Below are positions 25,026 through 42,908 of a stretch of 64,000 nucleotides of DNA, in pieces (positions within the stretch are counted from its first letter, which is position 1; each line of letters starts with the position of its first letter). The notes below the pieces were generated by a model. That model did not search any database. It had not been told where the DNA came from and worked only from the letters and a program-made list of their open reading frames with translations. The stretch spans positions 24,265 to 88,264 of the forward strand of contig JALFVN010000073.1 of NCBI GenBank assembly GCA_022787565.1, read 5' to 3'. Origin of the DNA: Clostridiales bacterium. GTDB lineage: Bacteria; Bacillota; Clostridia; Oscillospirales; Oscillospiraceae. The translations under genes and the position numbers were made by a program.

Positions 25026-25037
25026 GGGAGAGACAAG

Positions 25038-25583
25038 ATGAAGCTGATCCGAACCGCCCTCGCGGGTGTTTTTATCCTGGAGCCGGAGGTGCATGGGGAC
25101 AGCCGGGGCTTCTTCATGGAGAGCTGGTCAAAGCGCAGCTTTGAAGAGGCCGGATTGTTTTACGATTTTGTCCAGGACAACCACTCCTCCTCCACCGTGA
25201 AGGGCACCCTGCGGGGCATCCATTTCCAGCGGGGGGAGTGGTCCCAGGCCAAGCTGCTGCGCTGCGTCCGGGGCGCTGTGCTGGATGTGGCTGTGGATCT
25301 CAGACCGGAGAGCCCCACCTATAAAAAATGGGTGGCGGTGGAGCTGTCGGCAGAAAACAAAAAGCAGCTGCTTATCCCCCGGCGCATGGGCCATGGCTTT
25401 GTTACCCTGACCGACGATGTGGAATTTCTCTATAAGGCGGACAATTTCTATGCCCCTGAGGCCGACGGCGGCATCCGCTGGAACGACCCGGAGCTGAACA
25501 TCGACTGGGGCGTGGAAGAGCCGATGCTCTCGACAAAGGATCGGAATGCCCCCTTCCTGAAAGACGCGATAACGGATTTTTAG
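25038..25583 (+). CDS. rfbC: dTDP-4-dehydrorhamnose 3,5-epimerase
   Basis: 181 aa with GDSRGFF, TLRGIHFQ and a cupin fold. Confidence 0.93.
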   Translation: MKLIRTALAGVFILEPEVHGDSRGFFMESWSKRSFEEAGLFYDFVQDNHSSSTVKGTLRGIHFQRGEWSQAKLLRCVRGAVLDVAVDLRPESPTYKKWVAVELSAENKKQLLIPRRMGHGFVTLTDDVEFLYKADNFYAPEADGGIRWNDPELNIDWGVEEPMLSTKDRNAPFLKDAITDF

Positions 25584-25602
25584 CCGAAAAAGGAGAAAAA
25601 AT

Positions 25603-26619
25603 ATGAAGCTGTTCATTACCGGCGGAGCCGGATTTATCGGAAGCAACTTCATTTTTTATATGCGCAGGACCCACCCGGACGATGACCTGGTGTGTCTGGA
25701 CAAGCTGACCTATGCGGGCAATCTGGAAACCCTGGCTCCCGTGATGAACGATCCAAAGTTCAAGTTCGTCCGCGTTGACATTGCCGACCGGAAGGCGGTC
25801 TGCGATCTCTTTGAGGCGGAGAAGCCCGACGTGGTGGTGAATTTCGCGGCGGAGAGTCATGTGGACCGCTCCATCGAGAACCCCGCTGTTTTTCTGGAGA
25901 CCAACGTGATGGGCACCCAGGTGCTGCTGGACGCCTGCCGCATATACGGTATACGTCGTTTTCACCAGGTCTCTACCGACGAGGTGTACGGCGACCTGCC
26001 TCTAAACCGGCCGGAGCTGATGTTCACCGAGCAGAGCCTGCTTCACCCATCCAGTCCCTATTCCGCCTCCAAGGCATCAGCGGACCTGCTGTGCCTGGCC
26101 TATCACCGCACCTACGGCATGCCCATCACCATCAGCCGCTGCTCCAACAACTACGGGCCCTATCAGTTCCCGGAAAAGCTCATCCCCCTGATGATCGCAA
26201 ACTGCACCGCGGGTAAGCCGCTGCCGGTCTACGGTCAGGGCCTGAACGTGCGGGACTGGCTGTATGTGGAGGATCACTGCTCCGCCATCGACCTGATCTT
26301 GCAGGGCGGCAAGGAGGGCCAGGTGTACAATATCGGCGGCCACAACGAGATGCGCAATATCGACATTGTTAAGCTCATTGTCCACACTCTGGGCAGGAGC
26401 GAGGAGCTGATCACCTATGTGACCGACCGGAAGGGCCATGACATGCGCTATGCCATCGACCCCAGCTTTATCCATAAGGAGCTGGGCTGGCTGCCGCAGA
26501 CCAGATTTGAAAACGGCATCGTCAAGACCATCCAGTGGTACATGGATAACCGGAGCTGGTGGGAAAACATTCTCAGCGGAGAATATATAAACTGTTATGA
26601 CAGACTGTACGGCAGGTGA
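25603..26619 (+). CDS. rfbB: dTDP-glucose 4,6-dehydratase
   Basis: 338 aa with GGAGFIGSNF, STDEVYG and YSASKASAD. Confidence 0.95.
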   Translation: MKLFITGGAGFIGSNFIFYMRRTHPDDDLVCLDKLTYAGNLETLAPVMNDPKFKFVRVDIADRKAVCDLFEAEKPDVVVNFAAESHVDRSIENPAVFLETNVMGTQVLLDACRIYGIRRFHQVSTDEVYGDLPLNRPELMFTEQSLLHPSSPYSASKASADLLCLAYHRTYGMPITISRCSNNYGPYQFPEKLIPLMIANCTAGKPLPVYGQGLNVRDWLYVEDHCSAIDLILQGGKEGQVYNIGGHNEMRNIDIVKLIVHTLGRSEELITYVTDRKGHDMRYAIDPSFIHKELGWLPQTRFENGIVKTIQWYMDNRSWWENILSGEYINCYDRLYGR

Positions 26620-26623
26620 GAAG

Positions 26624-27472
26624 ATGAAGGTTTTGGTCACCGGAGAGAGCGGCCAGTTGGGCCATGACGTCTGCCTCACCCTTGAGCGGCGGGGAATAGC
26701 GCATAAGGGCCTTTCCTCAAAAGATCTGGATATCCGGGACGGTACCGCGGTGCAACGCGTGCTGGAGGAGTACCGCCCGGACGCAGTGATTCACTGCGCC
26801 GCCTATACCGGGGTGGACAGAGCGGAGGAGGAGCCGGAAGCGTGCTTTGCCGTGAATGCCCAGGGCACCCGGAATATTGCCCGGGCCTGCGCCCTGACCG
26901 GGGCAAAGCTGCTGTATATCTCTACGGACTATGTGTTTCCCGGCAAGGGGGAACGCTATTATGCACCGGAGGACGAAACCGGACCTCTCAGCGTCTACGG
27001 CAAAAGCAAGCTGGAGGGGGAAAGAGCGGTGAAGGAGCTGCTGGACAGGTTTTTCATTATCCGGACCTCCTGGGTCTTCGGAATAAACGGCAGCAATTTT
27101 ATCAGGACTATGCTCCGCCTTTCCGAAACAAATGATACTGTACGCGTGGTGGCGGACCAGGTGGGAAGCCCTACCTATACGGCGGATCTGGCCCCCCTGC
27201 TCTGCAACATGATCCAGACAGAGAAATACGGCATATATCACGTCACCAACGAAGGGCTCTGCTCCTGGGCAGAGCTTGCGGAGGCGGTTTTTGCCGCCGC
27301 TGGAAGAGAGACAAAGGTGCAGCGCATCACCACGGAGGAATACGGCGCGAAAGCGCCGAGACCGAAAAATTCCCGTCTGTCCAAGGCAAAACTGACAGAA
27401 CAGGGTTTTTCGCGCCTGCCGCTCTGGCAGGACGCGGTAAAACGCTTTCTGTTGGAATTGAACATCGGATAA
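26624..27472 (+). CDS. rfbD: dTDP-4-dehydrorhamnose reductase
   Basis: Internal ATG at 26624 (MKVLVTGESGQLG); also YGKSKLEGE. Confidence 0.9.
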   Translation: MKVLVTGESGQLGHDVCLTLERRGIAHKGLSSKDLDIRDGTAVQRVLEEYRPDAVIHCAAYTGVDRAEEEPEACFAVNAQGTRNIARACALTGAKLLYISTDYVFPGKGERYYAPEDETGPLSVYGKSKLEGERAVKELLDRFFIIRTSWVFGINGSNFIRTMLRLSETNDTVRVVADQVGSPTYTADLAPLLCNMIQTEKYGIYHVTNEGLCSWAELAEAVFAAAGRETKVQRITTEEYGAKAPRPKNSRLSKAKLTEQGFSRLPLWQDAVKRFLLELNIG

Positions 27473-27475
27473 AAT

Positions 27476-27508
27476 GAACATCCCTGCGCTGCCGCAGGGA
27501 TGTTTTTC
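27476..27508. terminator. Bidirectional terminator between rfbD and the convergent glycosyltransferase
   Basis: gaacatccctgcg-ctgc-cgcagggatgttttt. Confidence 0.8.
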
Positions 27509-27513
27509 GCTGT

Positions 27514-29268
27514 TTATTGTTTTCCGGGCCGTTTTGACAGAAGGAATCTCAGCTTTGCGGGGAGATAAAGCAGTATGCTTCCCAGCCTGTACCGGCGAGA
27601 GGCAAGGGTCTGGTCCAGCATGGTACGCAGGCGTTCATTTTCGCAGGCAAGCTCGCGGGAGCGAAGATCGGACTGCTCCAGCAGTGCTTCCAGGCGGGCG
27701 CTTTCTTCACGCAGTTCACAGCAGCGCTGCTCAGATTGCTCCAGAGCAGCTTTCAGACGGCTGTTTTCCCGGGCCTGTTCACGATTTTTTTCCTCTGCCT
27801 GTGAAAGTGCGCTTTCACAGTCGGCCCTGGCCTGCCAGAATTTACTGTGCATCTGCCGGAAAGCAATTCCGGCTGTTTCCGAAAAAACGGAAAATTCCTC
27901 CCAGCTGATGGATAAGGCGCTTTCCTCAGCGACATCAGAGGAGAGAACGGCGTGAAAAATGTCTGTCCAGCATTTCTCCAAGTCGATCTGCGCCAAAAAA
28001 GCCGCCTCTTGTCGGGCCGCACTGCCCATACGGCAGCGAAGCCGGTCCTGGTTGAGCACGTCCGCAAGAGCGTCTGCCGCGGCATCAAAATTTTTCCAGG
28101 GCACCTGAATAACGGCTTCAGACTGCCTGAGCACGGTGGCATAGGGCATCTCATAGCAGACAACAGGCACACCGAAGGCAAGACTTTCGCCGAGAACCAT
28201 GGAATAGCCCTCAAAGTTTGAAGTCTGTAAAAGAACATCGGCCTGATAAAAGAGCCGGCTGACCTCGCTGCTGTATCCGGGAAAGGAGATGTGGCCGGAA
28301 AGTCCCAGTTCATCTGCGCGGGCTTTGAAGCGGGATATAAGCTCGGCCGGAGCGTCGCCGGCCATGGTCAGCTGCACATCGGGGACTTTTGGCAGCAGGC
28401 GGTAGAGAATATCCAGAACGTCCGCCGGGTTCTTCTGGGAAGAATCGAAACGGCCCAGCCACAAAACCCGGTGACCATCCAGCGGCGGTGCGGCACAGTC
28501 TGAAACGGAGAAGGTCGGCGGATTATGAACAGAAAAGACCCGCTTGTTGACCAGTGACCAGTAGAGCCTGTCCGTTTCGGAAAGGGTGACAATGGCGTCA
28601 GCCTGCCGGTAAATGCTGTGACTTTTCCAGACCGCGTCGGACATGCAGACGGTCTGGGCAATGAAAACATTGTGGCTGTGGGCGATAAAAGCCGCACCTG
28701 TGCTTTTTATTGCGCACATATCCCAAAAACTCTGGTAAAACAGCCATCCATGATAAATGACGGCATCGATATCATAGCTTTCCATTATGCGGCAGAATTG
28801 GGAAAAGCGCTCCCTGCTGCCGGAGCCGTCTATGGGAGCGGAGCCGCTGAGAACCGCTCTGATCACCTCGCGCTCAAGATAATAGTCTTCCTGCCGGGGA
28901 GCTTCATCGGTGATCAGGACCACGCGATAACCTGCTTTGCACAAAATATTGCTCAGCAGGCATACGACCCTTTCCGCGCCGCCGTTGTATGCCCTGGTGT
29001 AATACATGCCGACTGTGCGCACAGCCTTTTTTGTGCAGGGGAAAAGCCCGGCAATATCCAGCACGCCGGCAATATCGTAAGGATCGGTCCAGTATTTTTC
29101 TGCCAGCGGCGGGATAATATCGCGCAGAGAACAGCGCTGCAGAATAAGCCGGCTTCCGTGACGCCGGAAGTCTTCCGGCAGAGTGAGAAGAAAAGCAAAG
29201 GCTGAGACCGGATCCTCTTCAGCCTTTTTCAAAAGCAGTTGGTCGTATTCGAGATAAGAAGGGCTCAT
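27514..29268 (-). CDS. Glycosyltransferase family 4-like protein with C-terminal coiled-coil extension
   Basis: 584 aa. The GT-B core has GGAERVV and ...SNFEGYSMVLGESLAFGVPVV. The last ~120 aa are heptad-like (LSQAEEKNREQARENSRLKAALEQSEQRCCELREESARLEALLEQSDLRSRELACENERLRTML). Confidence 0.65.
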   Translation of the reverse strand: MSPSYLEYDQLLLKKAEEDPVSAFAFLLTLPEDFRRHGSRLILQRCSLRDIIPPLAEKYWTDPYDIAGVLDIAGLFPCTKKAVRTVGMYYTRAYNGGAERVVCLLSNILCKAGYRVVLITDEAPRQEDYYLEREVIRAVLSGSAPIDGSGSRERFSQFCRIMESYDIDAVIYHGWLFYQSFWDMCAIKSTGAAFIAHSHNVFIAQTVCMSDAVWKSHSIYRQADAIVTLSETDRLYWSLVNKRVFSVHNPPTFSVSDCAAPPLDGHRVLWLGRFDSSQKNPADVLDILYRLLPKVPDVQLTMAGDAPAELISRFKARADELGLSGHISFPGYSSEVSRLFYQADVLLQTSNFEGYSMVLGESLAFGVPVVCYEMPYATVLRQSEAVIQVPWKNFDAAADALADVLNQDRLRCRMGSAARQEAAFLAQIDLEKCWTDIFHAVLSSDVAEESALSISWEEFSVFSETAGIAFRQMHSKFWQARADCESALSQAEEKNREQARENSRLKAALEQSEQRCCELREESARLEALLEQSDLRSRELACENERLRTMLDQTLASRRYRLGSILLYLPAKLRFLLSKRPGKQ

Positions 29269-29393: not shown

Positions 29394-29422
29394 TTGCAAA
29401 CATAAGGAAATAAAGGTATAAT
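29394..29422 (+). promoter_or_regulatory. Sigma-A-type promoter candidate for the Dlt-like cassette
   Basis: TTGCAA, then 17 nt, then TATAAT. It lies ~180 nt upstream of the ATG at 29601. Confidence 0.45.
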
Positions 29423-29600: not shown

Positions 29601-31229
29601 ATGGTCAGGCGCATTGTAAAAATTGTTGCTTTTTTTGTGATCGGGATCATGCTGCTTTTTGCTGTACAGGGTATTTTTGCTCCTAAATGGTATAGTGATG
29701 GAGCAACAAACCGGGTTTTGTCCGGTTTTTTTGCATTGGAAAACGATACGGCAGAAGTGCTTTTCCTCGGAACAAGTCATATGGGAAGAGGTGTATCCCC
29801 AATGAAAATATATGAGGATACAGGGATTGTTTCGTATAATCTCGCCACATCCGGACAGCCGTTGGAATGCAGCTACTTCCTCTTAAAAGAAGCCTTTAAA
29901 ACCCAGAGTCCAAAGGTTGTTTTCCTTGACGCAGGCAGAATCCTGAACGGAGAGGGAAATAACAATAATTCATATTGGCGGTATATTATTGATAATTTCC
30001 CGCGGGACGAGGTGTTTTGGGAGCTTGTTGAGGCATACAGTGAACTTCCGGACAGCGACGGCTCTTTGGCCGCATGGTTTCCTCTGATAAAATATCACTC
30101 AAGATGGGATCAACTGACGGAGGAATCCTTTGAATCAAGGTTTACAGGAGGGTACTACTCCGCCGGACAATATATCATGTCATATAGTTCTCCCTGTGCA
30201 CCTTCACAGCAAGTATTCGATGAGAAAGTGGCTCAGATTTCAGAAGAGTCAGTGATAACGATCCGTGCCGCAGAAGAAGGCGTACTGTCGGCTAAGGCAG
30301 TGAAAAAGGATGGCTACGCCCCTGAATTGACAGGGCATTGTATGGAATATGTTCTGAAAATAAAAAGCCTTTGCGAGGAAAATGGTGCGGAGCTTGTCAT
30401 CGTAAAGATCCCTTCTTATACATATTCCGGGTTAATTATGTCCGATAGCAACGCTGGAGACTACTCCTGGAACATCCTGAAATCCGATTTGCTGAGAGCC
30501 TTCACTGATGAGAACGATATACGTTTTATCGATATGATGTACGATGTCAATATCGTGGATAGCCTTTTCGATACGCATGACAGCGGGCACCTTAATGTGA
30601 ATGGAGCGGAAAAAGTTTCTGCTTTTATTGAAAAAATTCTCAGACAATATCATATTTCGCCGAATACAAACGGGAAATATGATGAAAATTTAGAGAAATA
30701 TCGTTTGGTTAGCACGGTTGCAAAACTGCAAAGCGAGAGAGATTTTCATCAGTATTTGGAAACACTGTCAGAAAACGCCGCAAATTGGCTGATTCTTATT
30801 TCCGCCTGTGACGAGTATACATACAGCCTCGATTCTCAGGATTTTGATAGTATGGAAAAGCTCGGACTTCACCTGGTACAGGAAGGGAATTTCAGAGATG
30901 CGTATGTCGCGGTGATCAATTCGGGAAACGTATTATATGAGGCAGTCTCTGAAGGACCGATAAGTTATGAAACGGTTTTGTGCAATCAGAAAATAAAGCT
31001 TTACAGTGGCGGAGGAAATAATTTTTCTACCTGCAACATTCTGCTTGAGGGCAAAGACTATTCCAACGGATGCAGAGGGCTGAATTTTGTGGTAATTGAT
31101 AAGGAGACCAATTTAGTCATTGACGCGGCTTCTTTTGACACGTTTTTGGAAGGTAAAACATTTACCAGAGCGGTAAATGAAACAAATACCCGTCTCAGAG
31201 CTTATGAGAGCGCAATCTGCTTCCAATAG
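29601..31229 (+). CDS. Membrane-anchored SGNH/DltD-like protein with extra C-terminal domain
   Basis: 542 aa: an N-terminal TM helix, an SGNH block-I-like LFLGTSHMGRG and a block-V-like DSGHLNVNGAEK. The gene is visibly AT-richer than its flanks. Confidence 0.55.
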   Translation: MVRRIVKIVAFFVIGIMLLFAVQGIFAPKWYSDGATNRVLSGFFALENDTAEVLFLGTSHMGRGVSPMKIYEDTGIVSYNLATSGQPLECSYFLLKEAFKTQSPKVVFLDAGRILNGEGNNNNSYWRYIIDNFPRDEVFWELVEAYSELPDSDGSLAAWFPLIKYHSRWDQLTEESFESRFTGGYYSAGQYIMSYSSPCAPSQQVFDEKVAQISEESVITIRAAEEGVLSAKAVKKDGYAPELTGHCMEYVLKIKSLCEENGAELVIVKIPSYTYSGLIMSDSNAGDYSWNILKSDLLRAFTDENDIRFIDMMYDVNIVDSLFDTHDSGHLNVNGAEKVSAFIEKILRQYHISPNTNGKYDENLEKYRLVSTVAKLQSERDFHQYLETLSENAANWLILISACDEYTYSLDSQDFDSMEKLGLHLVQEGNFRDAYVAVINSGNVLYEAVSEGPISYETVLCNQKIKLYSGGGNNFSTCNILLEGKDYSNGCRGLNFVVIDKETNLVIDAASFDTFLEGKTFTRAVNETNTRLRAYESAICFQ

Positions 31230-31288
31230 AGAGCGTCAGATTTTATCACGGAATTTACCTATTATTGTTTCGCTGGGGAAATTAGAAT

Positions 31289-32872
31289 ATGAGTTATCAA
31301 TCATTTGAATTTCTGCTTTTTTCAGCGGGAATTCTGCTGCTGTATTATATCGTCGGCAGAAAAGGACAGAAATGGGTCCTGCTGCTGGCAAACCTGGTTT
31401 TTTACGCGCTGGCGGGAACAGAGTATCTGCCTTTCCTTCTGGTCACGCTGCTGGCAAGCTACGGCGCGGGAAGATGGATGGGGAAGATCTACGAAGAGGC
31501 CGACGCGGAGCTTGCCTCCTGCCAGACGCCTGCGGAAAAGAAGCAGATCAAAGCCAACGCCAAGGCCCGGGCGAAAAAGGTCATGCTGCTGGCGCTGCTG
31601 ATCTCGGTGGGTCTCCTGGCCGTGTGCAAATATACCGGCTTCATCCTTCAGAATGTGAACATCCTGCTGGCCTGGCTGGGATTTGAGCAGATCGGCCTGT
31701 TCAAAATGATCCTGCCTCTGGGCATTTCCTATTATACCTTCATGGCCGTGGGCTATGTTCTGGACATATACTGGAAGCGCTACGGGGCGGAGAAGAATTT
31801 TGTCCTTTACGCGGTGTTTCTGTCTTATTTCCCACACATTGTCCAGGGCCCCATCGACAGATACAATAAGTTCAAACCCCAGATGGCAGAAGGTGTAAAG
31901 CTCAGCTATAAAAACATCACCTTCGGCGCACAGCTGGCGCTCTGGGGCTTTTTCAAAAAGATGGTCATCGCGGACCGGCTGGCGCCCTTTGTCAGTAATA
32001 TCTTTTCCCAGTATGATAACTACACTGGCATAATTTTTGTGATCGCCGTGGTGTTTTATGCCTTTCAGCTCTATGCAGATTTCTCCGGCTGTGTGGACAT
32101 TGTGTCCGGCATCTCCCAGATGTTCGGTATAAAGCTGGCGCAGAACTTCAATCACCCCTTCTTTGCCAAAAATATTCCGGATTTCTGGCGCAGATGGCAC
32201 ATGTCTCTGATGGAGTGGTTCAAGGATTACATCTTCTATCCGGTATCCACCTCAAACCTGGTAAAAAAAGTGAGAAAGCGTTTCCGGGACAAGGAGCAGA
32301 AGAAGCGGGAAGAGCTTTTTGCCTCCTGCTTCCCGGCGCTTATCGTGTGGATCATCACCGGGATCTGGCACGGCGCGGCCTGGAAGTATGTGGCCTGGGG
32401 CCTGTATAACGCGCTGCTGATCATTCTGGGCAACATTTTCGCGGACTTCAACAAAAACGCTGTGCAGAAGCTGAAAATCGATGAGGAGAACTTCAGCTGG
32501 CGGCTGTGGCAGATGCTGAGGACCTTTGCCCTGTGCTGCGTCGGGCGCATTTTTTCCCGTGCCGACGACCTGGCGGCCGCATTCGGCATTTTCAAAAACA
32601 TGTTCAGCGGTCTGGGCATGAAATACGTGGCAGGCGGGCAGCTCTATCGCTACGGTATGGGAAAGATGGATTTTCTTGTTGCGCTCACCGCCATGGGAAT
32701 ACTGTGGGCGGTGGACATGCTTCAGGAGAAAATGCCCCTTCGGGAGACCATTGCAAAGCAGAATCTGGTCTTCCGCTGGGTGCTGATCTACGGCTGCTTG
32801 TTCGCGGTAATCATTTTCGGCGTATACGGACCGGGATATGATGCGAGCAGCTTTATCTACGGACAATTTTAA
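31289..32872 (+). CDS. MBOAT family O-acyltransferase (DltB/AlgI-like)
   Basis: 527-aa polytopic ORF with FWRRWHMSLMEWFKDYIFYP and the conserved His in ITGIWHGAAW. Confidence 0.85.
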   Translation: MSYQSFEFLLFSAGILLLYYIVGRKGQKWVLLLANLVFYALAGTEYLPFLLVTLLASYGAGRWMGKIYEEADAELASCQTPAEKKQIKANAKARAKKVMLLALLISVGLLAVCKYTGFILQNVNILLAWLGFEQIGLFKMILPLGISYYTFMAVGYVLDIYWKRYGAEKNFVLYAVFLSYFPHIVQGPIDRYNKFKPQMAEGVKLSYKNITFGAQLALWGFFKKMVIADRLAPFVSNIFSQYDNYTGIIFVIAVVFYAFQLYADFSGCVDIVSGISQMFGIKLAQNFNHPFFAKNIPDFWRRWHMSLMEWFKDYIFYPVSTSNLVKKVRKRFRDKEQKKREELFASCFPALIVWIITGIWHGAAWKYVAWGLYNALLIILGNIFADFNKNAVQKLKIDEENFSWRLWQMLRTFALCCVGRIFSRADDLAAAFGIFKNMFSGLGMKYVAGGQLYRYGMGKMDFLVALTAMGILWAVDMLQEKMPLRETIAKQNLVFRWVLIYGCLFAVIIFGVYGPGYDASSFIYGQF

Positions 32873-32887
32873 GAAAGAAGGATAAAA

Positions 32888-33109
32888 ATGGAACAACTGA
32901 GAGAGATTATGACCAGCAAATTCCCCAGCATTGATTTTGAAAAGGAAAAGAACCTGATCGACGACGGCCTGATCACATCCATTGACGTTGTCGGCATCAT
33001 TACCGAGCTGGAAGATGCTTTCGGGATATCTGTCACCATGGAGTATATCCAGCCCATGTATTTTCAGTCACTGGAGAGCATGTGGGAAATGATCGAAGAA
33101 CTGGCGTGA
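32888..33109 (+). CDS. Acyl/D-alanyl carrier protein-like (phosphopantetheine attachment)
   Basis: 73 aa, acidic, with candidate attachment Ser in DDGLITSIDVVGIITELED. It sits directly after the MBOAT gene, as dltC does. Confidence 0.7.
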   Translation: MEQLREIMTSKFPSIDFEKEKNLIDDGLITSIDVVGIITELEDAFGISVTMEYIQPMYFQSLESMWEMIEELA

Positions 33110-33139
33110 TCGCGCTGCCTCCGCCGTCAGCGGAGGCGG

Positions 33140-34570
33140 TTGACTAAAACAGGCGGGGGGGCGGAAAAAAGCTTGATACAAGTCGTCATTGTAAGTATAT
33201 ACATATTGTTGACCATAGGAATAGGGATTTTTTCCAAATCTAAAGTCAAATCCTCCAGGAATTTTGACGGAAGCGGTTTGGGATTGCTTATGTGCGTGGT
33301 TGCAAGCGCGGGAGAATGGCTGGGCGGGACCTCTACCACAGGGGTCGCGGAATATGGTTATGAATTTGGCATTGCCGGCGCATGGTACACCATCGCAAAC
33401 GGCGTGGGCGTGCTTGTGCTGGCGATTTTCTTTGCCCGAAAGTTCAGAAGCATGAATCAGACCACAGTCCCGGGCATGGTGGGGCAGAGCCTGGGGAACC
33501 GCTCAAGGATCGTATCCAGCGCCCTGCTGCTGTTTGCCATGGTGGCAGTGGGCATATCCCAGATGGTTGCCATTGCCACTTTGGGCGAGACCCTGTTCGG
33601 ACTGCGCCCGACCCTGTCAATTCTGGTCATGGGCCTGGCTGTGCTGCTTTATACGGTGTTCGGCGGGATGCTGGCCGTAGGCTATACCAACATCATGCAT
33701 GTGGTCATCCTGTATGTGGGGAGCGTCCTTGCGGTCCTGGCCTGCGTGAACAATATCGGTGGTCTAAGTACCCTCCATGCGAGCCTGCCCGAGAGCTATT
33801 TCCATATGGACAGCATCGGCATACCCAAGGTCTCCTCCTGGCTCTTTGCCTCGGTATTCGGCGCCTGCGTCGCCCAAGCGGGCTTACAGCCTATTCTGGG
33901 CGCCAGGGATGAGAAGACCGCGGAAAAGGCCTCTTATCTGATCGCCCTGCTGGTGGCTCCCTTCGGCCTGCTGACCGCGCTGCTGGGCATGTACGCCCGG
34001 GTGCAGTTTCCCGGTCTGGAGAGCTCCAAGTTGGCCCTGACGACCCTGATCATGTCCCTGAATCCGGCTGCGGGCGGGCTGATCATGGCGGCTCTGCTGG
34101 CTGCCGTACTGTCTACTGCCTCGCCGATCTTCCTGGCCTGCGGGACGCTGTTTACCAGGGATATCTACGTCAGACTCCGCTCCGGCGCTGAATATGGTGA
34201 AGACGCGCGCACGCTGCGGATAACCAGAGCGGCGACATTTGCCTTCGGGCTGCTGTGCATCGGCGGCGCGCTGCTTTTCCATGATTCGCAGAGACTGCTG
34301 GATATCGTATACTTTGCCTACAGCATACGGGGAAGCCTGTTTATTATTCTTCTGCTGGGCATGTACTGGAGAAAAACCTCGCCCAGGGCGGCAAACCTTG
34401 CCATGCTGGCCACATCGCTTGTGGGGCTATTCTGGGTGGTGTACAAGAGCGCTGCCGGACATTATCCCATCCACCCGGCCTTCAGCGAAACCTATGCGGC
34501 CATGATCACGGCCCTTGTGTTTACGGTGCTGGGAAGCTTTGTGTGGAAAAAAGAAAAAATCAGCGCATAA
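33140..34570 (+). CDS. Sodium:solute symporter (SSS) family transporter
   Basis: 476-aa polytopic ORF. The start is ambiguous: TTG at 33140 or TTG at 33173 (LIQVVIVSIYILL...). It has typical SSS TM organisation. A stable hairpin, gcctccgc-cgtca-gcggaggc, precedes it. Confidence 0.75.
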   Translation: MTKTGGGAEKSLIQVVIVSIYILLTIGIGIFSKSKVKSSRNFDGSGLGLLMCVVASAGEWLGGTSTTGVAEYGYEFGIAGAWYTIANGVGVLVLAIFFARKFRSMNQTTVPGMVGQSLGNRSRIVSSALLLFAMVAVGISQMVAIATLGETLFGLRPTLSILVMGLAVLLYTVFGGMLAVGYTNIMHVVILYVGSVLAVLACVNNIGGLSTLHASLPESYFHMDSIGIPKVSSWLFASVFGACVAQAGLQPILGARDEKTAEKASYLIALLVAPFGLLTALLGMYARVQFPGLESSKLALTTLIMSLNPAAGGLIMAALLAAVLSTASPIFLACGTLFTRDIYVRLRSGAEYGEDARTLRITRAATFAFGLLCIGGALLFHDSQRLLDIVYFAYSIRGSLFIILLLGMYWRKTSPRAANLAMLATSLVGLFWVVYKSAAGHYPIHPAFSETYAAMITALVFTVLGSFVWKKEKISA

Positions 34571-34582
34571 TAGGGAGAAAAA

Positions 34583-36070
34583 ATGAGAAAAACTATTGTA
34601 GAGTGTGTTTATGAGCATGCGAAAGCCACACCGGACAAAACGGCGGTCATTGCCGGCGGCGTGGAGACTTCATACAGCCGTCTGTTTGCCCTTTCCAACG
34701 CCTACGGAAGCTTTTTGACGGCGCAGGGGCTGAAAAAAGGCGGCGTGGTAGTGACAAGAGCTGCCCAGACCCTGGAATACGTCGTGCTGTATCTGGGCGT
34801 ACATATGGCGGGCGGAGTGATCTCCTCCCTGGAAAAGAGCGTGCCGGATCAGGTCATGGGGCAGGTGGCAGACACGGTGAAGGCCCAAATGATCATCAGC
34901 ACGGAGCTTTCCGCCTTCGAAGGAGAGGGAAGAACCCTGGTCAAACGGGATGTGCTGGCCGATGCGGAGCGCTTTATCGAAAGCCCTGTCCGCCCGTTTC
35001 CGCAGCTTGAGGATTCGGCGGATATTCTGTTCACTACGGGGACTACGGGAAAATCAAAAGGCGTGGAGCTGTCCCACAAGGCTCTTGCGGCGACTGCGGA
35101 AAACCTGATTTACGGCTGCGGCTACAAGCAGGATACCGTCATCATCGTACCCGGCCCGCTGAATCACGCAAACCCCATCAGAAAGCTTTTTACGACCCTG
35201 GTGAACGGAAGCACCATTGTGATTCTGGACGGGATGATCGACATCCGGGCCTTTTTCAAGGCCCTTGACACCCCAGGCTCCATTGCCTGCTGCCTGCCTC
35301 CCTCGGCCGTGCGCATGATTTTTACGCTGACAAAAGACAAGATCGGCGAATATGCGGACAGGATCGATTTTATCGAGTCGGCCACGGCGCCGCTGCCGGA
35401 AACGGATCGGGAGCATCTCTGCCGTTTGCTGCCCAACACAAGGCTGCTGAACAATTACGGCTCATCCGAGTCGGCCTCTGTCTGCATGTATGACTACAAT
35501 AAATACCCCGGGCGTGTGGGCTGCGTGGGAAAGGCCATGCCCAACTCCCAAATTGTGGTGGTCAATGACGATAGAGAGATCATCCATTCTTCAAAGGACA
35601 ATATGGGTCTTCTGGCCTGCATCGGTGATGTGAATATGAAGGGCTATATCAACGAGCCCGAGCTGACAAGAGAGGTCCTTGAGGATGGGGTGGTATATAC
35701 CAGCGATGTGGGCTATATCGATGATGAGGGCTTTGTGTACATATCCGGCCGCAAAGGCGATGTGATTAACGTAGGCGGACTGAAGGTGGCTCCCACAGAG
35801 GTGGAAGCGGCAGCCCTGGCGCTGGATGGTGTGGTCGACTGCATCTGTGTGCCCGTGGACAATGCCATTACGGGAAAAGCCTTAAAGCTCATTGTGGTGC
35901 TGCGGGAGGACCTGCCTTTTGAAGTGAAGACCATAAGGAGCTTCCTCAGTACAAGGCTGGAGGCATTCAAGGTGCCCACGGTCTACGAGCAGGCGGACCA
36001 TGTGGCAAGGACCTACAACGGAAAGCTTGACCGGAAAGCATACGCAAACGGCGAGCTCTGCATGGTGTAA
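34583..36070 (+). CDS. Class I adenylate-forming enzyme (DltA/acyl-CoA-synthetase-like)
   Basis: 495 aa with FTTGTTGKSKGV, YGSSE, YTSDVGYIDDEGFVYISGRKGDVINVGGLKV and NGKLDRKA motifs. Confidence 0.85.
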   Translation: MRKTIVECVYEHAKATPDKTAVIAGGVETSYSRLFALSNAYGSFLTAQGLKKGGVVVTRAAQTLEYVVLYLGVHMAGGVISSLEKSVPDQVMGQVADTVKAQMIISTELSAFEGEGRTLVKRDVLADAERFIESPVRPFPQLEDSADILFTTGTTGKSKGVELSHKALAATAENLIYGCGYKQDTVIIVPGPLNHANPIRKLFTTLVNGSTIVILDGMIDIRAFFKALDTPGSIACCLPPSAVRMIFTLTKDKIGEYADRIDFIESATAPLPETDREHLCRLLPNTRLLNNYGSSESASVCMYDYNKYPGRVGCVGKAMPNSQIVVVNDDREIIHSSKDNMGLLACIGDVNMKGYINEPELTREVLEDGVVYTSDVGYIDDEGFVYISGRKGDVINVGGLKVAPTEVEAAALALDGVVDCICVPVDNAITGKALKLIVVLREDLPFEVKTIRSFLSTRLEAFKVPTVYEQADHVARTYNGKLDRKAYANGELCMV

Positions 36071-36087: not shown

Positions 36088-36123
36088 TGATGGCGGTCAT
36101 TCGGGAAAGAATGACCGCCATCA
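36088..36123. terminator. Bidirectional terminator hairpin between convergent genes
   Basis: tgatggcggtcattc-gggaaa-gaatgaccgccatca. Confidence 0.75.
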
Positions 36124-36125: not shown

Positions 36126-37382
36126 TTATGAGATCATATCCGTTATTGCTTTTGCCTTCATGCTCCAGTCGTTTTCCCTTGCTTCCTTATCCAGAAGGGC
36201 GATGTAGTCCGGATCCTCCCGGAGGGTCATGGCCTTGTCCAGCAGGGCGATAAACTCCTCATGGTCGTGGCCGATGAGGACGGAGGCATATTTCCGGCAC
36301 TCGTTCATGTCGGTGGTGACGATGGGCTTGTGCAGCGCCATGTACTCGAAAATCTTCACCGGGCTTGTGGAGCGGGTGATGTCGTTGATCAAAAAGGGGA
36401 TGGTCAGCACGTCGGCTCTGGCGGCGTAGTATTTCAGCACCTTATAGTCCCGGGGACCCATAAAGTAGATGTTTTCCTCGCCGGACAGGTTCTCATCGAA
36501 GGATTCATCGTACTTGATGCCGAAGAGAACCACACTGTATTTTCCGGTCTCAGCGATCTTTTTTACCAGATCATAGTCAAACCACTTGGCCAGGGCTCCG
36601 TAATAGCAGACGATGGGCTTGCCCTTGTCCAGCACGGCCTGAAACTCCGGCTCAAAAACATAGTCCCCGTCCATGTGCTGAAAAAATTCATAGTCCACGC
36701 CATTGGAGGAGAAGACCAGATTCTCCGTTCCCCGGTGGGCAATCACATCCTGCTTCAACAGCTCTGCTGTGACTACCACATATACATTTTTGTGGCTCAT
36801 CACATAGTCATATTTGTCGGAAATATTTTTGGGCAGAGTTTTGGTGCCGGCCAGCTCCGGGCTGATGTGATCGATGTATTCATAGATAAAGCCGAAGCCG
36901 GAATGGATGTAGTTTTCGATGTTCTCCACCGACAGCTTCCAGTCCGTGGAGTAGAGCTGGACGAACTTGGGCTTGTCCACCGCCGACAGCTCCTGCATTA
37001 AAATACGGTTTAAAAGGATATTATTGAAGTTGAAGAGCCACAGCCCGTCTGCCTTTTTTTTCAGGGTCTTTACCCGGTCGGTCATGGTGGTGACCTCGTA
37101 GATTACCAGAGAGCCGTTTTTGACCAGATTTCCCGCGATATGCTGGGGCCGCTGGAAGAGGGGAACATTGTAGCCAAAGCTGCTGCGCCAGAGAACCACG
37201 CGCTGCGCGTCCTCCGCCAGCATCTCCCGCACCAGACAGCGGTATTTTCCCGGCTGAAACAAGACGGCAAAGCTGATCCTGTCCAGATAATTGGCTACCA
37301 CATAGGCGTAGAGCTTTTTGCAGAAGCCGATGAAGCCGTATTTTTTATAGACGTTTACCAGCTTGGAAATCTTCTCTCTCAT
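36126..37382 (-). CDS. Glycosyltransferase (GT-B, TuaH-like C-terminal half)
   Basis: 418 aa. The C-terminal half, PIVCYYGALAKWFDYDL...SPVKIFEYMALHKPIVTT, is typical of GT4/TuaH-like enzymes. Confidence 0.55.
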   Translation of the reverse strand: MREKISKLVNVYKKYGFIGFCKKLYAYVVANYLDRISFAVLFQPGKYRCLVREMLAEDAQRVVLWRSSFGYNVPLFQRPQHIAGNLVKNGSLVIYEVTTMTDRVKTLKKKADGLWLFNFNNILLNRILMQELSAVDKPKFVQLYSTDWKLSVENIENYIHSGFGFIYEYIDHISPELAGTKTLPKNISDKYDYVMSHKNVYVVVTAELLKQDVIAHRGTENLVFSSNGVDYEFFQHMDGDYVFEPEFQAVLDKGKPIVCYYGALAKWFDYDLVKKIAETGKYSVVLFGIKYDESFDENLSGEENIYFMGPRDYKVLKYYAARADVLTIPFLINDITRSTSPVKIFEYMALHKPIVTTDMNECRKYASVLIGHDHEEFIALLDKAMTLREDPDYIALLDKEARENDWSMKAKAITDMIS

Positions 37383-37384
37383 GC

Positions 37385-38497
37385 TTATATCCTGTCTTTG
37401 AATTTCCCGATGATGGCCTCGGCAATACGTTCGCTGGCGTGGCCGTCGCCGTAGGGGTTGGAGGCCCGGCTCATGCGCCGGTACTCCTCTTCGTCTGTCA
37501 GCAGGCGGCAGGTCTCCCGGTAGATAGCTTCCTCGTCGGTGCCCACCAGCTTCAGCGTGCCGGCATCGATGCCCTCGGGCCGTTCGGTGGTGTCCCGCAG
37601 GACCAGAACGGGCTTGCCCAGAGAGGGGGCCTCCTCCTGAATGCCGCCGCTGTCCGTCAGAATAAGGTGCGCACGGTTTTCAAAATTGTGGCAGTCAAAA
37701 ACCTCCAGCGGCTCGATCAGCCGGATGCGCTCACAGCCGTCAAAGATCTCGTGGGCAACCTGCCGCACGGCGGGGTTCCGGTGGATGGGGTAGAGCACCT
37801 TTACGTCAGGGAATTCCTCCACAACGCGGCGCACGCCCCGGAAAATGTTCCGCATAGGCTGGCCCAGATTCTCCCGCCGATGGGCGGTGAGCAGGATGAG
37901 CCGCTCGTTTTCGCCGATCCAGTTAAGCTCCGGGTGGGTATAATCCTCCCGGACGGTGGTTGCCATGGCGTCGATGACGGTGTTGCCGGTGACATAGATC
38001 TTCTCCGGGCCCACGTTCTCCCGCAGCAGGTTCTCCCGGCTCAATGCAGTGGGGGCGAAGAACATGTCCGTCAGCCGGTCCACCATCTGCCGGTTCATCT
38101 CTTCCGGGTAGGGGCTGTACTTATTGTCGGTGCGAAGGCCGGCCTCCACATGGCCGATGGCCACCTGCTGGTAAAAGGCGGCCAGAGCCCCGGCAAAGGT
38201 GGTGGTAGTATCCCCATGGACGAGGATGAGATCGGGCCTTGCCTCTTTGATCACGGCCTCCAGCCCCAGCAGGGCGGCGGTAGTGATGTCGGACAGGGTC
38301 TGGCCCTGCTTCATGATGTTCAGGTCGTAGTCCGGCCGGATGGCAAAGGTGTCCAGCACCTGGTCCAGCATCTCCCGGTGCTGGGCGGTGACGCAGACGA
38401 TGGACTGTATCTCCTCCCGGCGCTCCAGCTCCTTTACCAGAGGAGCCATTTTGATGGCCTCCGGCCGGGTGCCGAAAATGCTCATTACTTTGATCAT
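37385..38497 (-). CDS. wecB: UDP-N-acetylglucosamine 2-epimerase (non-hydrolysing)
   Basis: Internal ATG at 38497 (MIKVMSIFGTRPEAIKMAPL); the 37-aa track extension is rejected. Motifs: HGDTTT, LTDSGGIQEEAPSLGKPVLVLR. Confidence 0.92.
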   Translation of the reverse strand: MIKVMSIFGTRPEAIKMAPLVKELERREEIQSIVCVTAQHREMLDQVLDTFAIRPDYDLNIMKQGQTLSDITTAALLGLEAVIKEARPDLILVHGDTTTTFAGALAAFYQQVAIGHVEAGLRTDNKYSPYPEEMNRQMVDRLTDMFFAPTALSRENLLRENVGPEKIYVTGNTVIDAMATTVREDYTHPELNWIGENERLILLTAHRRENLGQPMRNIFRGVRRVVEEFPDVKVLYPIHRNPAVRQVAHEIFDGCERIRLIEPLEVFDCHNFENRAHLILTDSGGIQEEAPSLGKPVLVLRDTTERPEGIDAGTLKLVGTDEEAIYRETCRLLTDEEEYRRMSRASNPYGDGHASERIAEAIIGKFKDRI

Positions 38498-38498
38498 T

Positions 38499-39779
38499 TT
38501 AATTTTCCTCTCCTTGTATGGCTTCGCAGAGCTGTTTTGCCTCCAGCATGCAGTCCTCCATGGAACAGTAGGTCCAGCCGCCGTAACGGCCGATGGTATA
38601 GATCCCATAACCGGAAAGCTCCTGCTTAAGTTGCTTTATGCTGCGGTCAACATCGGTGCTGATATGTACATAGGCGGGATCCATAATGATGGCCGCATAG
38701 GCTTCAAGGCAGTTGTCTGCCTCCAGAATACCGTGCCTGCGCAGGTTCTGCAAAGTGAACTCCAGCTGGGCGTCCACATCGATCAGGGCATCCCTGGGGT
38801 AGCCGATCTCAATGTACATGCTCAGCTTGTCGGCGTCCAGAATGTTGTCATAGAAGCCTATACGGTAATAGTTGGCGTCCTTTTCGGGGATGTAGATCCA
38901 GTGCTCGTCCTTCATGGGGGACTTTTTGCTGAAGCCCAGGTTGAATACCAGAACCTTGTTGTACGAAAGTCTGTTTTTCAGCGCGTCATAGCGGCTGTTG
39001 GAAAACAGAGGGAGGAAGCTGTTCAGCGGAGAACTGTTGATCAGATAATCAAAGTGGTAGCGCTGGCCCATGTTGTCCACTGCCGTCCTGCTCTCCGGAT
39101 CAACAGACACCAGCTCCCGGCCGCAGAGTACCCTGCTGCTGTCGAGCCGGCGGTACAGGATGTCGATAAAGGAGCCTGCGCCGTTTTTGGGGTACATGAA
39201 GCTGCTGTTGTAAGAATTGTCCTTCTCACGCTTCATGTTCGCAATGATCTGGGGAATATCGGCGTAGGGGAAGAAACGGCCCATAGCATCCTTGTCCAGC
39301 GTCCGCAGATCGCAGGCATAAAGCTTTTCGTTGTAGGGCTTGAGGAATTTCTCCACAATGGATTTTCCGAACTTGCCATACAGCATGTCCAGAAAGCTGT
39401 CGTACTCCGGCTTTTCCTCCTTGTTGAACAGGTCGTAAAGGCAGTCGATAAATTCATCCTTTTCCAGCTGGTGGATATTGGTCTGGAAGGGATAGTCGAT
39501 CAGTGCGCCTTTGTAAAGGATCTTGGTGCATTTGTCCTTGCGGATAATGTCCTGGGGGGCCACGTTGTCCGTGAAGAGCTTTTTAAACTCCTCGGTTTTA
39601 AAGTGGAAGAAATGACCGGCATAGTCCCAGATATAGTCGCCCTGGCGGATGGTGCGGCAGTATCCGCCCACCTCGTCACATTTTTCAAGGATGAGATAAT
39701 CGTCCTTCAGGGTATTTGCCGCCGTGAGCCCGGAGATCCCGGCACCCACGATCAGATATTTTACATGTTTATCGCCCAT
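38499..39779 (-). CDS. FAD-dependent oxidoreductase, UDP-galactopyranose mutase-like
   Basis: 426 aa with the dinucleotide-binding IVGAGISGLTAA and GGYCRT...WDYAGHFFH. The glycan-locus context fits this call. Confidence 0.5.
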   Translation of the reverse strand: MGDKHVKYLIVGAGISGLTAANTLKDDYLILEKCDEVGGYCRTIRQGDYIWDYAGHFFHFKTEEFKKLFTDNVAPQDIIRKDKCTKILYKGALIDYPFQTNIHQLEKDEFIDCLYDLFNKEEKPEYDSFLDMLYGKFGKSIVEKFLKPYNEKLYACDLRTLDKDAMGRFFPYADIPQIIANMKREKDNSYNSSFMYPKNGAGSFIDILYRRLDSSRVLCGRELVSVDPESRTAVDNMGQRYHFDYLINSSPLNSFLPLFSNSRYDALKNRLSYNKVLVFNLGFSKKSPMKDEHWIYIPEKDANYYRIGFYDNILDADKLSMYIEIGYPRDALIDVDAQLEFTLQNLRRHGILEADNCLEAYAAIIMDPAYVHISTDVDRSIKQLKQELSGYGIYTIGRYGGWTYCSMEDCMLEAKQLCEAIQGEEN

Positions 39780-41049: not shown

Positions 41050-41058
41050 ATCTGCACC

Positions 41059-42093: not shown

Positions 42094-42130
42094 TTTCTCT
42101 TTTCCTTTCAGGCTCAGATCTGTTTTATAG

Positions 42131-42892: not shown

Positions 42893-42908
42893 TGCCGATG
42901 CTCCTGTG

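Follow-up and report, generated by a model that had tools for sequence, protein, structure and literature searches.

Organization of the locus

Within the analyzed window, a stretch of 64,000 nt from a gut Clostridiales bacterium, an ORF check located five co-directional genes on the + strand at positions 29601-36070, in agreement with the original prediction. By family, they encode an SGNH transferase (gene 1), an MBOAT (gene 2), a 73-aa carrier protein (gene 3), an SSS symporter (gene 4), and an adenylate-forming ligase (gene 5), in this order and with intergenic gaps of 59, 15, 63, and 12 nt. A terminator scan found no terminator-like site in any of the four gaps, and since the ligase gene starts 12 nt after the symporter gene, both are almost certainly co-transcribed. 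The anticipated sigma-70-type promoter candidate (TTGCAA-17-TATAAT) was found at 29394..29422 on the + strand, approximately 180 nt upstream of gene 1, where it matches 10 of 12 consensus positions and remains putative. A divergent candidate for the GT4 gene lies on the minus strand (29338-29310). The 5' UTR of the cassette had no Rfam match, and its structure was not unusual.

Two hairpins had been highlighted in the original prediction. The first, a G+C-rich structure with an 11-bp stem (33117..33139, +), located within the 63 nt that separate the carrier and symporter genes, does exist, but it is ordinary for its composition (z = -1.6 vs shuffles) and not terminator-like: a U-tract is missing, and the terminator scan passed over it. 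Relatives are without this hairpin, and their carrier and SSS genes lie 3-6 nt apart. The second (36088..36123), situated where gene 5 and the GT1 gene of the minus strand converge, is very stable on either strand (-28.8 kcal/mol, z = -8.2) and marks the end of the cassette. Its presumed bidirectionality held less well, since the T-tail and the terminator score were found on the minus strand only and serve the operon encoded there. Likewise, the cassette does not sit between two convergent glycosyltransferase genes: the downstream GT1 gene is convergent, whereas the upstream GT4 gene is divergent.

Upstream of the cassette, the genes of the putative acceptor pathway (24066..29268) are dTDP-rhamnose genes on the + strand (24066-27472; RmlD by Pfam) and the GT4 glycosyltransferase gene on the minus strand (27514-29268; Pfam). 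On a contig of the same species (L067), the gene calls were NTP_transferase, dTDP_sugar_isom, RmlB, and RmlD. The downstream context (36126..43766, minus strand; Pfam) comprises GT1, a UDP-GlcNAc 2-epimerase, an FAD/NAD oxidoreductase, an unknown 426-aa protein, GT2, and an ABC-2 exporter pair of the TagGH/Wzm-Wzt type.

Predicted functions of the encoded proteins

Gene 1 (29601..31229, +) encodes a protein of 542 aa which, judged by fold and motifs, is a predicted extracytoplasmic acyltransferase of the SGNH/DltD fold with Ser59, Asp327, and His330. Its only hydrophobic segment (residues 8-26) corresponds to a single N-terminal membrane helix, and both G57-x-S59 and D327-x-G-H330 were invariant among 46 homologues. 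Neither an SGNH nor a DltD match was obtained in Pfam or NCBIfam. In a Foldseek search with the AlphaFold model (pLDDT 91), the top match was DltD (6pfx, E 2e-5, 13-15% identity), followed by SGNH acylhydrolases and PatB, which suggests a likeness to DltD at the fold level only. The extra C-terminal domain (approximately residues 395-520, model pLDDT 96) is weakly FAM3/ILEI-like (Pfam ILEI, 33.6 bits). Foldseek aligned 59-101 of its residues weakly with FAM3B, ILEI, and the stem of POMGnT1 (probability 0.6-0.9), and this beta domain is a putative glycan-binding module. The membrane anchor, the SGNH/DltD-like fold, and the additional domain claimed for gene 1 were all recovered. The family comprises 530 clusters at E<=1e-30, and all named members are labelled hypothetical.

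Gene 2 (31289..32872, +) encodes an MBOAT of 527 aa (Pfam PF03062, E 3e-15). The predicted catalytic His361 lies in the expected WHG motif, which aligned to the WHG of DltB (structure 6bug, E 1.7e-28), with only residues 140-385 taking part in the alignment; against the DltB model TIGR04091, the protein reached 184.5 bits at a cut-off of 375. The C-terminus reads FIYGQF (residues 522-527, nt 32852-32869) and includes Tyr524. Such an FxYxxF-type end was present in 59 of the 60 complete MBOATs from related loci, and the remaining one carries the motif four residues from its end. The FxYxxF hexapeptide has been defined as an acyl-shuttle motif, and an acyl-Tyr shuttle was shown experimentally for DltX and PatA (PMC12148441). 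No DltX microprotein was found in the window, as had been noted before, and among its ORFs of at least 20 aa, only the MBOAT ends in an FxYxxF-type motif. The absence of dltX is explained by the fusion of the acyl-shuttle motif to the MBOAT C-terminus (PMC12148441 for the motif).

Gene 3 (32888..33109, +) is predicted to encode a phosphopantetheine-dependent carrier protein of 73 aa with its attachment site at Ser31 (codon 32978-32980). While HMM searches matched the MBOAT, SSF, AMP-binding, and AMP-binding_C families elsewhere in the cassette, the PP-binding match was marginal (19.8 bits, just under the cut-off of 20.8). The solved type II peptidyl carrier protein 2my5 aligned with E 3e-5 and placed Ser31 on its attachment Ser, the S-to-A variant 2my6 aligned at the same position, and Ser31 was invariant across 40 cassette carrier proteins, in line with the modifiable Ser proposed earlier. 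The best matches include PltL-type carriers. Solved DltC chains matched more weakly than other carrier proteins (E 0.09-0.4), and the DltC model NF003464 gave 22.6 bits at a cut-off of 68.

Gene 4 (33173..34570, +) encodes an SSS-family transporter of 465 aa, as assigned previously (Pfam SSF, E 5e-42; PF00474, 144.6 bits over residues 47-423, cut-off 22.8). Its start codon, formerly ambiguous, was settled at TTG 33173, which fits the family consensus MxQxxIV and the gene calls. TIGR00813 scored 146 bits, too low for its threshold of 184, and the protein reached none of the substrate-specific equivalogs in NCBIfam (PutP 92, ActP 81, and PanF 74 bits, far below the cut-offs). Solved relatives were uninformative on the substrate.

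Gene 5 (34583..36070, +) encodes a stand-alone adenylate-forming enzyme of the ANL superfamily (495 aa), with an AMP-binding domain (PF00501, E 4e-49) followed by AMP-binding_C (PF13193, E 2e-9). The core motifs claimed in the original prediction were all located, namely TTGTTGKSKG (A3), NYGSSE (A5), YTSDVG (A7), GRKGDVINVGG (A8), and NGK481 with the A10 Lys. The A4 motif is of the carboxylic-acid type (PLNH195-A196-NPIR200) and is accompanied by Glu265 and Lys481. His195-Ala196 aligned to the Phe-Asp of LgrA and presumably also to that of PheA, whose sequence underlies the pocket numbering. With His-Ala in the place of Phe-Asp, the pair that binds the alpha-amino group, an alpha-amino acid such as D-alanine is an unlikely donor; of the acyl or aminoacyl donor envisaged before, the alpha-aminoacyl alternative is therefore unlikely. 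All SSS-linked ligases share conserved, polar pocket positions, and the motifs, too, are kept throughout the SSS-linked orthologues. A comparison with DltA gave only 131 bits for TIGR01734 (cut-off 560), 134 bits for NF003417 (cut-off 476), and E 1e-22 for the solved enzyme, and the pocket is not DltA-like. The closest solved relatives were the LgrA A domains, malonyl-CoA and oxalyl-CoA synthetases, and VinN, the latter being the top solved match across the pocket region. The best NCBIfam matches are acyl-CoA ligase models and the NCBI name is 'acyl--CoA ligase'; as so annotated, the enzyme could form a CoA thioester instead of loading a carrier.

Conservation of the cassette in relatives

A survey of 62 genome loci, anchored on gene 1 relatives, found an adjacent MBOAT in 48, a carrier protein as well in 30, and a ligase in addition in 29. 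Approximately half of the related SGNH loci therefore hold both carrier protein and ligase, with ligase types and accessory enzymes varying, and MBOAT/SGNH loci without a ligase were also without a carrier protein. A symporter was present in the cassette in none of these 62 loci.

The block MBOAT-carrier-SSS-ligase nevertheless recurs among unrelated Clostridia contigs. The order is kept in L068, L069, L071, L087, L153, and L154, as well as in L075 and L093, where SSS and ligase are fused; L070 follows it as far as the SSS gene, at which the contig ends, and in L146 the last two genes (SSS and ligase) are swapped. The in-frame SSS-ligase fusion forms a single uninterrupted ORF of 963-989 aa on three contigs (L075, L076, and L093). 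Every SSS-type cassette has a carrier gene. The cassette-linked SSS proteins, including gene 4, formed one clade apart from SSS homologues of other contexts (neighbor-joining tree, no support values), and wherever this clade occurs, the SSS gene adjoins the ligase gene. Of the best 120 SSS homologues, 25 lie on contigs equal in length to contigs of top ligase homologues, and these are putative cases of co-occurrence. Partial arrangements were found as well: ligase homologues (~59% identity) with a carrier protein and without SSS or MBOAT in L151 and L152, and a carrier-SSS-ligase trio beside an AT3 protein, without MBOAT, in Butyrivibrio. On the strength of these comparisons, we regard the symporter as part of the cassette system, with which it is conserved.

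Proposed mechanism and alternative explanations

With moderate confidence, we propose that the operon O-acylates a cell-wall polysaccharide after its export, using an acyl group imported from outside. We infer the following route, including every chemical step, the direction of transport, and the identity of acid and acceptor. The SSS transporter, as the proposed importer of the acyl donor, would take up a small, probably polar, carboxylic acid by Na+-coupled transport. Gene 5, which is proposed to load the carrier protein, would adenylate this acid and then transfer it as a thioester to the phosphopantetheine arm on Ser31 of gene 3. By means of His361, gene 2 would pass the acyl group from the carrier to Tyr524 of its own FIYGQF at the outer face of the membrane, where gene 1 would take it on Ser59 and esterify a sugar hydroxyl, while its FAM3/ILEI-like C-terminal domain may hold the polymer.

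Judged solely by location, the probable acceptor is the polysaccharide of the surrounding genes, which contains rhamnose and is exported by an ABC system. The attachment to the locus polysaccharide suggested earlier is supported by this gene neighborhood, as orthologous cassettes are also found in polysaccharide loci: in the window, L069, L150, and L153, the module lies among glycosyltransferase and sugar-nucleotide genes. That another envelope molecule is modified instead, such as peptidoglycan, a lipoteichoic-acid-like polymer, or a glycolipid, appears unlikely, though it deserves consideration. The atypically low G+C content of gene 1 (42.8%, GC3 0.44) suggests a separate acquisition and would fit such an acceptor, as would the orthologous cassette of L154, which is located outside any polysaccharide locus. 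The recurring glycan setting and the extra lectin-like domain of gene 1 speak for the polysaccharide.

The source of the donor was considered next to its destination. If the relay ran as proposed on an endogenous donor, the SSS protein would be left for salvage, sensing, or another import needed by the pathway. Most cassettes of the family manage without any transporter, the substrate of the SSS protein is not readable from its sequence, and near SSS homologues also occur in unrelated contexts. Still, we consider an endogenous donor rather improbable in light of the in-frame SSS-ligase fusions on three contigs, the adjacency of SSS and ligase wherever the SSS clade occurs, and the one pocket signature common to all SSS-linked ligases, which together argue for import of the acid that the ligase activates.

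Little credence is given to a route in which the ligase makes an acyl-CoA that is used directly by the MBOAT (cf. PatA and AlgI with acetyl-CoA), the carrier being accessory or for another step. The carrier gene accompanies the ligase gene in 29 of the 62 genome loci and in every SSS-type cassette, it is missing from the ligase-free MBOAT/SGNH loci, and the Ser of its product is invariant; moreover, the LgrA adenylation domains and VinN, near solved relatives of gene 5, load carrier proteins or carrier domains. These points stand against the acyl-CoA ligase matches and name of gene 5, the PatA/AlgI-type architecture of the MBOAT with its fused shuttle motif, and the use of acyl-CoA by non-Dlt MBOAT/SGNH pathways (PMC12148441).

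Finally, ordinary teichoic-acid D-alanylation by a rearranged dlt operon, with the symporter as an unrelated or D-alanine-importing passenger, would share the four enzyme types of DltA-D, and among solved structures genes 2 and 1 match DltB and DltD best. It is nevertheless extremely improbable given the His-Ala in place of the A4 Asp (FDxS is retained in sister cassettes by the ligases linked to a decarboxylase), the low DltA, DltB, and DltC scores (131-134, 184, and 22.6 bits at cut-offs of 476-560, 375, and 68), the lack of a Pfam DltD match for gene 1, the shuttle motif on the MBOAT rather than on a DltX microprotein, and the setting in a rhamnose-glycan locus.

Comparison with known systems

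No paper describing such a cassette, with its proposed importer-fed, carrier-dependent glycan acylation, was found in the literature. With the Dlt system (DltA, DltB, DltC, DltD, and DltX), the proposed relay shares adenylation, a carrier thioester, an MBOAT, an acyl-Tyr shuttle, an SGNH transferase, and an extracellular polymer. In contrast to Dlt, the ligase pocket is without the amino-binding Asp, none of the four proteins comes near the Dlt equivalog cut-offs, where there is a match at all, the MBOAT has approximately 140 extra C-terminal residues with the fused shuttle motif instead of a DltX microprotein, and the SGNH protein is extended by a further domain at its C-terminus. Gene order, the built-in symporter, and the rhamnose-glycan locus differ as well.

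In AlmE/AlmF/AlmG of Vibrio cholerae, which add glycine to lipid A, a DltA-like ligase and a small carrier protein similarly feed an envelope modification other than D-alanylation. However, AlmG is a homologue of the LpxL/LpxM-type (lauroyl/myristoyl) lipid A acyltransferases rather than an MBOAT/SGNH pair, an amino acid serves as donor, and no transporter is known to take part. An AMP ligase beside a PLP decarboxylase in polysaccharide loci is also known from the exosortase-A-associated pair TIGR03098/TIGR03099 of Gram-negative exopolysaccharide loci, the function of which is unknown; this set probably also includes an acyl carrier protein. Gene 5 reached 168 bits to TIGR03098, and sister cassettes, L039 among them, match both models, but all scores are far under the cut-offs, the window cassette is without a decarboxylase, and descriptions of the TIGR03098/TIGR03099 loci are not known to mention MBOAT/SGNH or SSS genes. 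VinN/VinL and PltF/PltL are stand-alone carrier-loading adenylation systems of secondary metabolism, with VinN resembling gene 5 over the pocket region and PltL-type carriers resembling gene 3; in contrast to the proposed membrane acyl relay, they feed polyketide or non-ribosomal peptide assembly lines.

Among the acetyl-CoA-using MBOAT-SGNH pairs, which include PatA/PatB (peptidoglycan O-acetylation), AlgI/AlgJ/AlgX, and WssH/WssI, the PatA/PatB type has the C-terminal FxYxxF of the MBOAT on extra helices and a separate SGNH partner (PMC12148441). The cassette likewise has an MBOAT with the His, a terminal FxYxxF, and an adjoining SGNH protein with a Ser-Asp-His triad, and the DHHW/AlgX-type partner in the orthologous cassette of L154 recalls AlgX. 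The acetyl-CoA-using systems are explicitly described as having neither a carrier protein nor an adenylating enzyme (PMC12148441), whereas the cassette operon includes genes for both. Their conservation with the MBOAT in 29 of 62 loci implies a donor other than acetyl-CoA.

Altogether, the comparative evidence, including a ligase pocket unlike that of DltA and a symporter-ligase pair that is conserved and in some contigs fused, supports the original prediction of a non-canonical Dlt relative with a symporter-imported donor, and none of the outcomes named there as counting against it was observed. The cassette most likely works like teichoic-acid D-alanylation but differs from that system, and since most gene 1 relatives belong to symporter-free cassettes, import would not be general to the family.

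Operon structure

The five genes of the cassette follow one another on the plus strand with intergenic gaps of 59, 15, 63, and 12 nt, and encode an SGNH/DltD-fold transferase (gene 1, 29601-31229, 542 aa), an MBOAT (gene 2, 31289-32872, 527 aa), a carrier protein (gene 3, 32888-33109, 73 aa), an SSS-family symporter (gene 4, ending at 34570), and an adenylate-forming ligase (gene 5, 34583-36070, 495 aa). The start of gene 4, which the original prediction had called ambiguous, lies at 33140 or 33173 by ORF, and family consensus and gene calls settled on the TTG at 33173. The same five genes were found on several gut metagenome contigs with 97-99% identity. A promoter candidate (TTGCAA-17-TATAAT) lies at 29394-29422. 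No riboswitch was recognized 5' of the operon, as the whole window gave no gathering-level Rfam match and the 5' UTR only noise (fold z = -0.4).

The hairpin described earlier between genes 3 and 4 (33117-33139) does exist, with a stability unexceptional for the local G+C content (z = -1.6). Its reading as an internal terminator was rejected, since it has no U-tract, was unscored in the terminator scan, and is followed 3' by the essential ligase gene. The hairpin at 36088-36123, between the end of gene 5 and the end of the convergent minus-strand GT1 gene, is very stable (z = -8.2), as expected; its presumed bidirectionality holds in part, with a T-tail present on the minus-strand side only.

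The transferase, MBOAT, and ligase

For gene 1, HMM searches (Pfam, NCBIfam) returned no SGNH or DltD match, and the only match among PDB sequences was a marginal one to FAM3B. The fold was obtained from structure prediction: the AlphaFold model (pLDDT 91) matched DltD best, followed by SGNH acylhydrolases and PatB. The residues G57-x-S59 and D327-x-G329-H330 are invariant across 46 homologues, and the N-terminus contains one hydrophobic helix. The extra C-terminal domain (model pLDDT 96) weakly resembles FAM3B, ILEI, and the POMGnT1 stem domain. As the POMGnT1 stem is carbohydrate-binding, the domain can reasonably be regarded as a putative glycan holder. With regard to base composition, gene 1 has 42.8% G+C (GC3 0.44), compared with 46-57% (GC3 0.64-0.71) for genes 2-5 and a window mean of 55.9%. 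The difference points to separate acquisition or exchange of the gene for the outer transferase, and fits an exchangeable outer partner.

Gene 2 is recognized as an MBOAT by Pfam (E 3e-15), and its alignment to the DltB structure (E 1.7e-28) spans residues 140-385 and places His361 of the WHG motif on the catalytic His. Beyond the aligned part, the protein has about 140 extra residues and the C-terminal sequence FIYGQF. FxYxxF is an acyl-shuttle motif whose Tyr bears the acyl group (PMC12148441). A motif of this type forms the C-terminal end of 59 of the 60 complete MBOATs in related loci and lies four residues from the end in the remaining one. The window was also searched for a separate DltX-like ORF or microprotein and contains none, in agreement with the original prediction.

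Gene 5 encodes a complete ANL enzyme. In amino-acid adenylation domains, the Asp of the A4 motif (Phe-Asp, FDxS) contacts the substrate alpha-amino group, while carboxylic-acid ligases have PLxH at this position. HMMER alignments with both LgrA adenylation domains set His195-Ala196 of gene 5 against Phe-Asp, and the full motif reads PLNHANPIR, i.e., PLxH as in carboxylic-acid ligases. The ten pocket positions (A196, N197, R200, S241, E265, A267, N291, S299, V300, and K481) are provisional, being numbered by alignment to a PheA sequence. The polar pocket is conserved in all symporter-linked orthologues. Solved structures gave no substrate assignment for either the ligase or the symporter: the pocket region of the ligase matched VinN, luciferase, and TycA with E values between 1e-6 and 1e-8, and the SSS relatives vSGLT, SMVT, and CHT1 gave low scores for the symporter, which reaches no substrate-specific model. 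Genomic context was likewise uninformative, as the neighbors of non-cassette SSS homologues are a 456-aa protein, a 108-aa protein, a regulator-like 247-aa protein, or housekeeping genes.

Linkage of the symporter to the cassette

The symporters most similar to gene 4 (55-64% identity) sit in MBOAT-carrier-SSS-ligase cassettes at L068, L069, L071, and L087 (L numbers denote genome loci or metagenome contigs with homologues of cassette proteins), and at L075 and L093, where SSS and ligase are fused. Also among them are L070, with this order up to the contig end at the SSS gene, and L146, with the last two genes swapped. The same order was found in two named assemblies: in L153, an Oscillospiraceae MAG, inside a deoxyhexose/Glf polysaccharide locus; and in L154, where a DHHW/AlgX-type partner replaces the gene-1 type protein. 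The fusions are single uninterrupted ORFs of 963-989 aa (L075:837-3803, L076:242-3130, L093:1781-4684), which implies a cytoplasmic C-terminus for the transporter, and an architecture of this kind would couple uptake with activation. In a neighbor-joining tree, the cassette-linked symporters, including that of the window, form one clade apart from homologues in other contexts, and 25 of the 120 best SSS matches lie on contigs equal in size to those of the best ligase matches. Conservation of the symporter with the cassette in these relatives is supported by recurring gene order, fusions, and a single clade, and on this sequence evidence gene 4 is assigned to the system.

The cultured rumen strain Butyrivibrio sp. 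MB2005 (L150) has the carrier-SSS-ligase trio in a polysaccharide locus that encodes an AT3 protein but lacks an MBOAT, so the trio behaves as a portable donor-supply module, which may also feed an AT3-type route. In this locus (8346-14572), the trio is followed by a 48-aa ORF, in which no DltX-type shuttle motif was found, a 562-aa polytopic membrane protein with no Pfam match, and an Acyl_transf_3 protein.

Related loci and sister cassettes

A genome scan with one genome per species, anchored on gene-1 relatives (12-sequence alignment), found 62 loci, mostly in gut and rumen Clostridia but also in Collinsella, Enorma, and a few others. An MBOAT is adjacent in 48 of them, a carrier is present in addition in 30, and a ligase as well in 29, in several gene orders; a symporter lies within the cassette in none of the 62. 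The ligases fall into three classes, namely the gene-5 type (H-A), a nitroreductase-fused type (H-S), and a DltA-like amino-acid type (FDxS). With the last, a PLP-dependent decarboxylase always lies between the ligase and carrier genes, and elsewhere this slot is taken by a short-chain dehydrogenase or an uncharacterized 230-aa protein. From these counts and classes, carrier-dependent MBOAT relays are common and vary in the part that makes the donor.

The sister cassette ligase-PLP decarboxylase-carrier-MBOAT-SGNH (L018, L028, L034-L039, L041, L048, L059, L061; e.g., L039:5385-10972) occurs commonly among Lachnospiraceae, Oscillospiraceae, Collinsella, and Enorma. The FDxS ligase passes the TIGR01733 cut-off (322 vs. 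317 bits), and the PLP enzyme is similar to LysA and to TIGR03099, the exosortase-A-associated decarboxylase, suggesting that a carrier-bound amino acid is decarboxylated before transfer to a polymer. A C-terminal nitroreductase-family domain is fused to the adenylating enzyme in many cassettes (L003:6850-8889, L005:13348-15429, L009:13480-15573, L069:10799-12823), and in L068, L069, and L071 such a fusion follows the gene-5 type as a second ligase. In L151 and L152 (687-11470), the gene-5 ligase type is put to a different use: a ligase with 59% identity to gene 5 occurs with a 93-aa carrier and no SSS or MBOAT, together with two ABC exporter subunits, a carbamoyltransferase, a radical-SAM-like protein, a GT2, and a PmbA/TldD-like protein.

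Surroundings of the cassette in the window

A PGA_cap (CapA-type capsule synthesis) protein (18897-20033, minus strand, E 3e-54) lies upstream of the pyrophosphatase and rml genes. A FAD/NAD-binding oxidoreductase (NAD_binding_8 and Amino_oxidase), resembling PRK07208 'hypothetical protein' models and, weakly, UDP-galactopyranose mutase, is encoded near the cassette both here (38499-39779, minus strand) and in L069 (2699-3910). Pfam gave no match for four ORFs of 355-426 aa (39769-41049, 43782-44849, and 46855-48006, minus strand; 20177-21409, plus strand), of which at least 39769-41049 lies within the polysaccharide gene block. The minus-strand ORFs of the ABC ATPase (42131-43123) and the ABC-2 permease (42909-43766) overlap by about 215 nt, and the ABC domain starts only at residue 127 of the ATPase ORF; the listed ATPase start is therefore probably too far upstream.

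Proposed mechanism and alternatives

The best-supported reading comprises five steps. A small polar carboxylate would be imported, then adenylated and loaded on the carrier; the MBOAT would move the acyl group to its own C-terminal Tyr and hand it to Ser59 of the SGNH enzyme, which would esterify the rhamnose-type, ABC-exported polysaccharide of the surrounding locus. Import and activation are drawn from gene fusion, synteny, and motifs, and the transfers to the Tyr and to Ser59 from the mechanisms established by experiment for Dlt and PatAB (PMC12148441). In its way of working, the cassette resembles Dlt; in its build, it resembles the PatA/PatB pair.

The polysaccharide is the probable acceptor by its location, and a different acceptor is the rival at this last step. 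In the NCBI annotation of the source MAG, gene 5 is named 'acyl--CoA ligase' and gene 2 'MBOAT family protein'. An acyl-CoA donor would agree with the name of gene 5; against it stands the carrier protein, whose Ser31 is invariant. A symporter unconnected with donor supply would match the gene-1-anchored loci, and has the fused ORFs and the recurring gene order against it. As to ordinary D-alanylation, the cassette is outside the Dlt family in every tested respect except the fold of gene 1, for which DltD is the best match: the gene 5 pocket, checked as the original prediction had proposed, is not DltA-like (His-Ala for Phe-Asp; 131-134 bits on DltA models with cut-offs of 476-560), LgrA, VinN, and the synthetases of malonyl-CoA and oxalyl-CoA are all much better matches among solved structures than DltA, and gene 2 reaches 184.5 bits on the DltB equivalog model against a cut-off of 375.

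Significance

Acylation of wall polymers governs surface charge, phage adsorption, recognition by the immune system, and resistance to lysozyme and host antimicrobial peptides. To our knowledge, Dlt is the sole carrier-protein-dependent MBOAT relay so far described, and no account of carrier-dependent MBOAT-SGNH cassettes outside Dlt, or of their link to SSS transporters, came up in full-text searches of a limited collection. Non-Dlt MBOAT/SGNH pathways were stated to lack a carrier protein in a 2025 mechanistic paper (PMC12148441); this cassette and its many relatives suggest that the statement is incomplete.

We propose tentatively, with somewhat less than even confidence, that MBOAT-carrier-SSS-ligase cassettes are an undescribed class of envelope decoration, in which gut and rumen Clostridia scavenge a specific host, diet, or microbial metabolite, couple its uptake directly to activation, and display it as an ester on a surface polysaccharide. 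Together with the sister cassettes (amino-acid ligase and PLP decarboxylase, ligase-nitroreductase fusion, short-chain dehydrogenase), they would form a broad, chemically diverse family of carrier-dependent MBOAT relays, of which D-alanylation is one member only. Cultured Butyrivibrio sp. MB2005, which has the carrier-SSS-ligase trio, makes this idea open to direct test. Relatives of the cassette occur in Oscillospiraceae, Lachnospiraceae, Butyricicoccus, Gemmiger, and Coriobacteriia, and abundant gut commensals may decorate their glycans with several different acyl groups. The coupling of symporter and ligase suggests that surface decoration can depend on an environmental metabolite; if so, the gut metabolite pool would be linked to bacterial surface chemistry.
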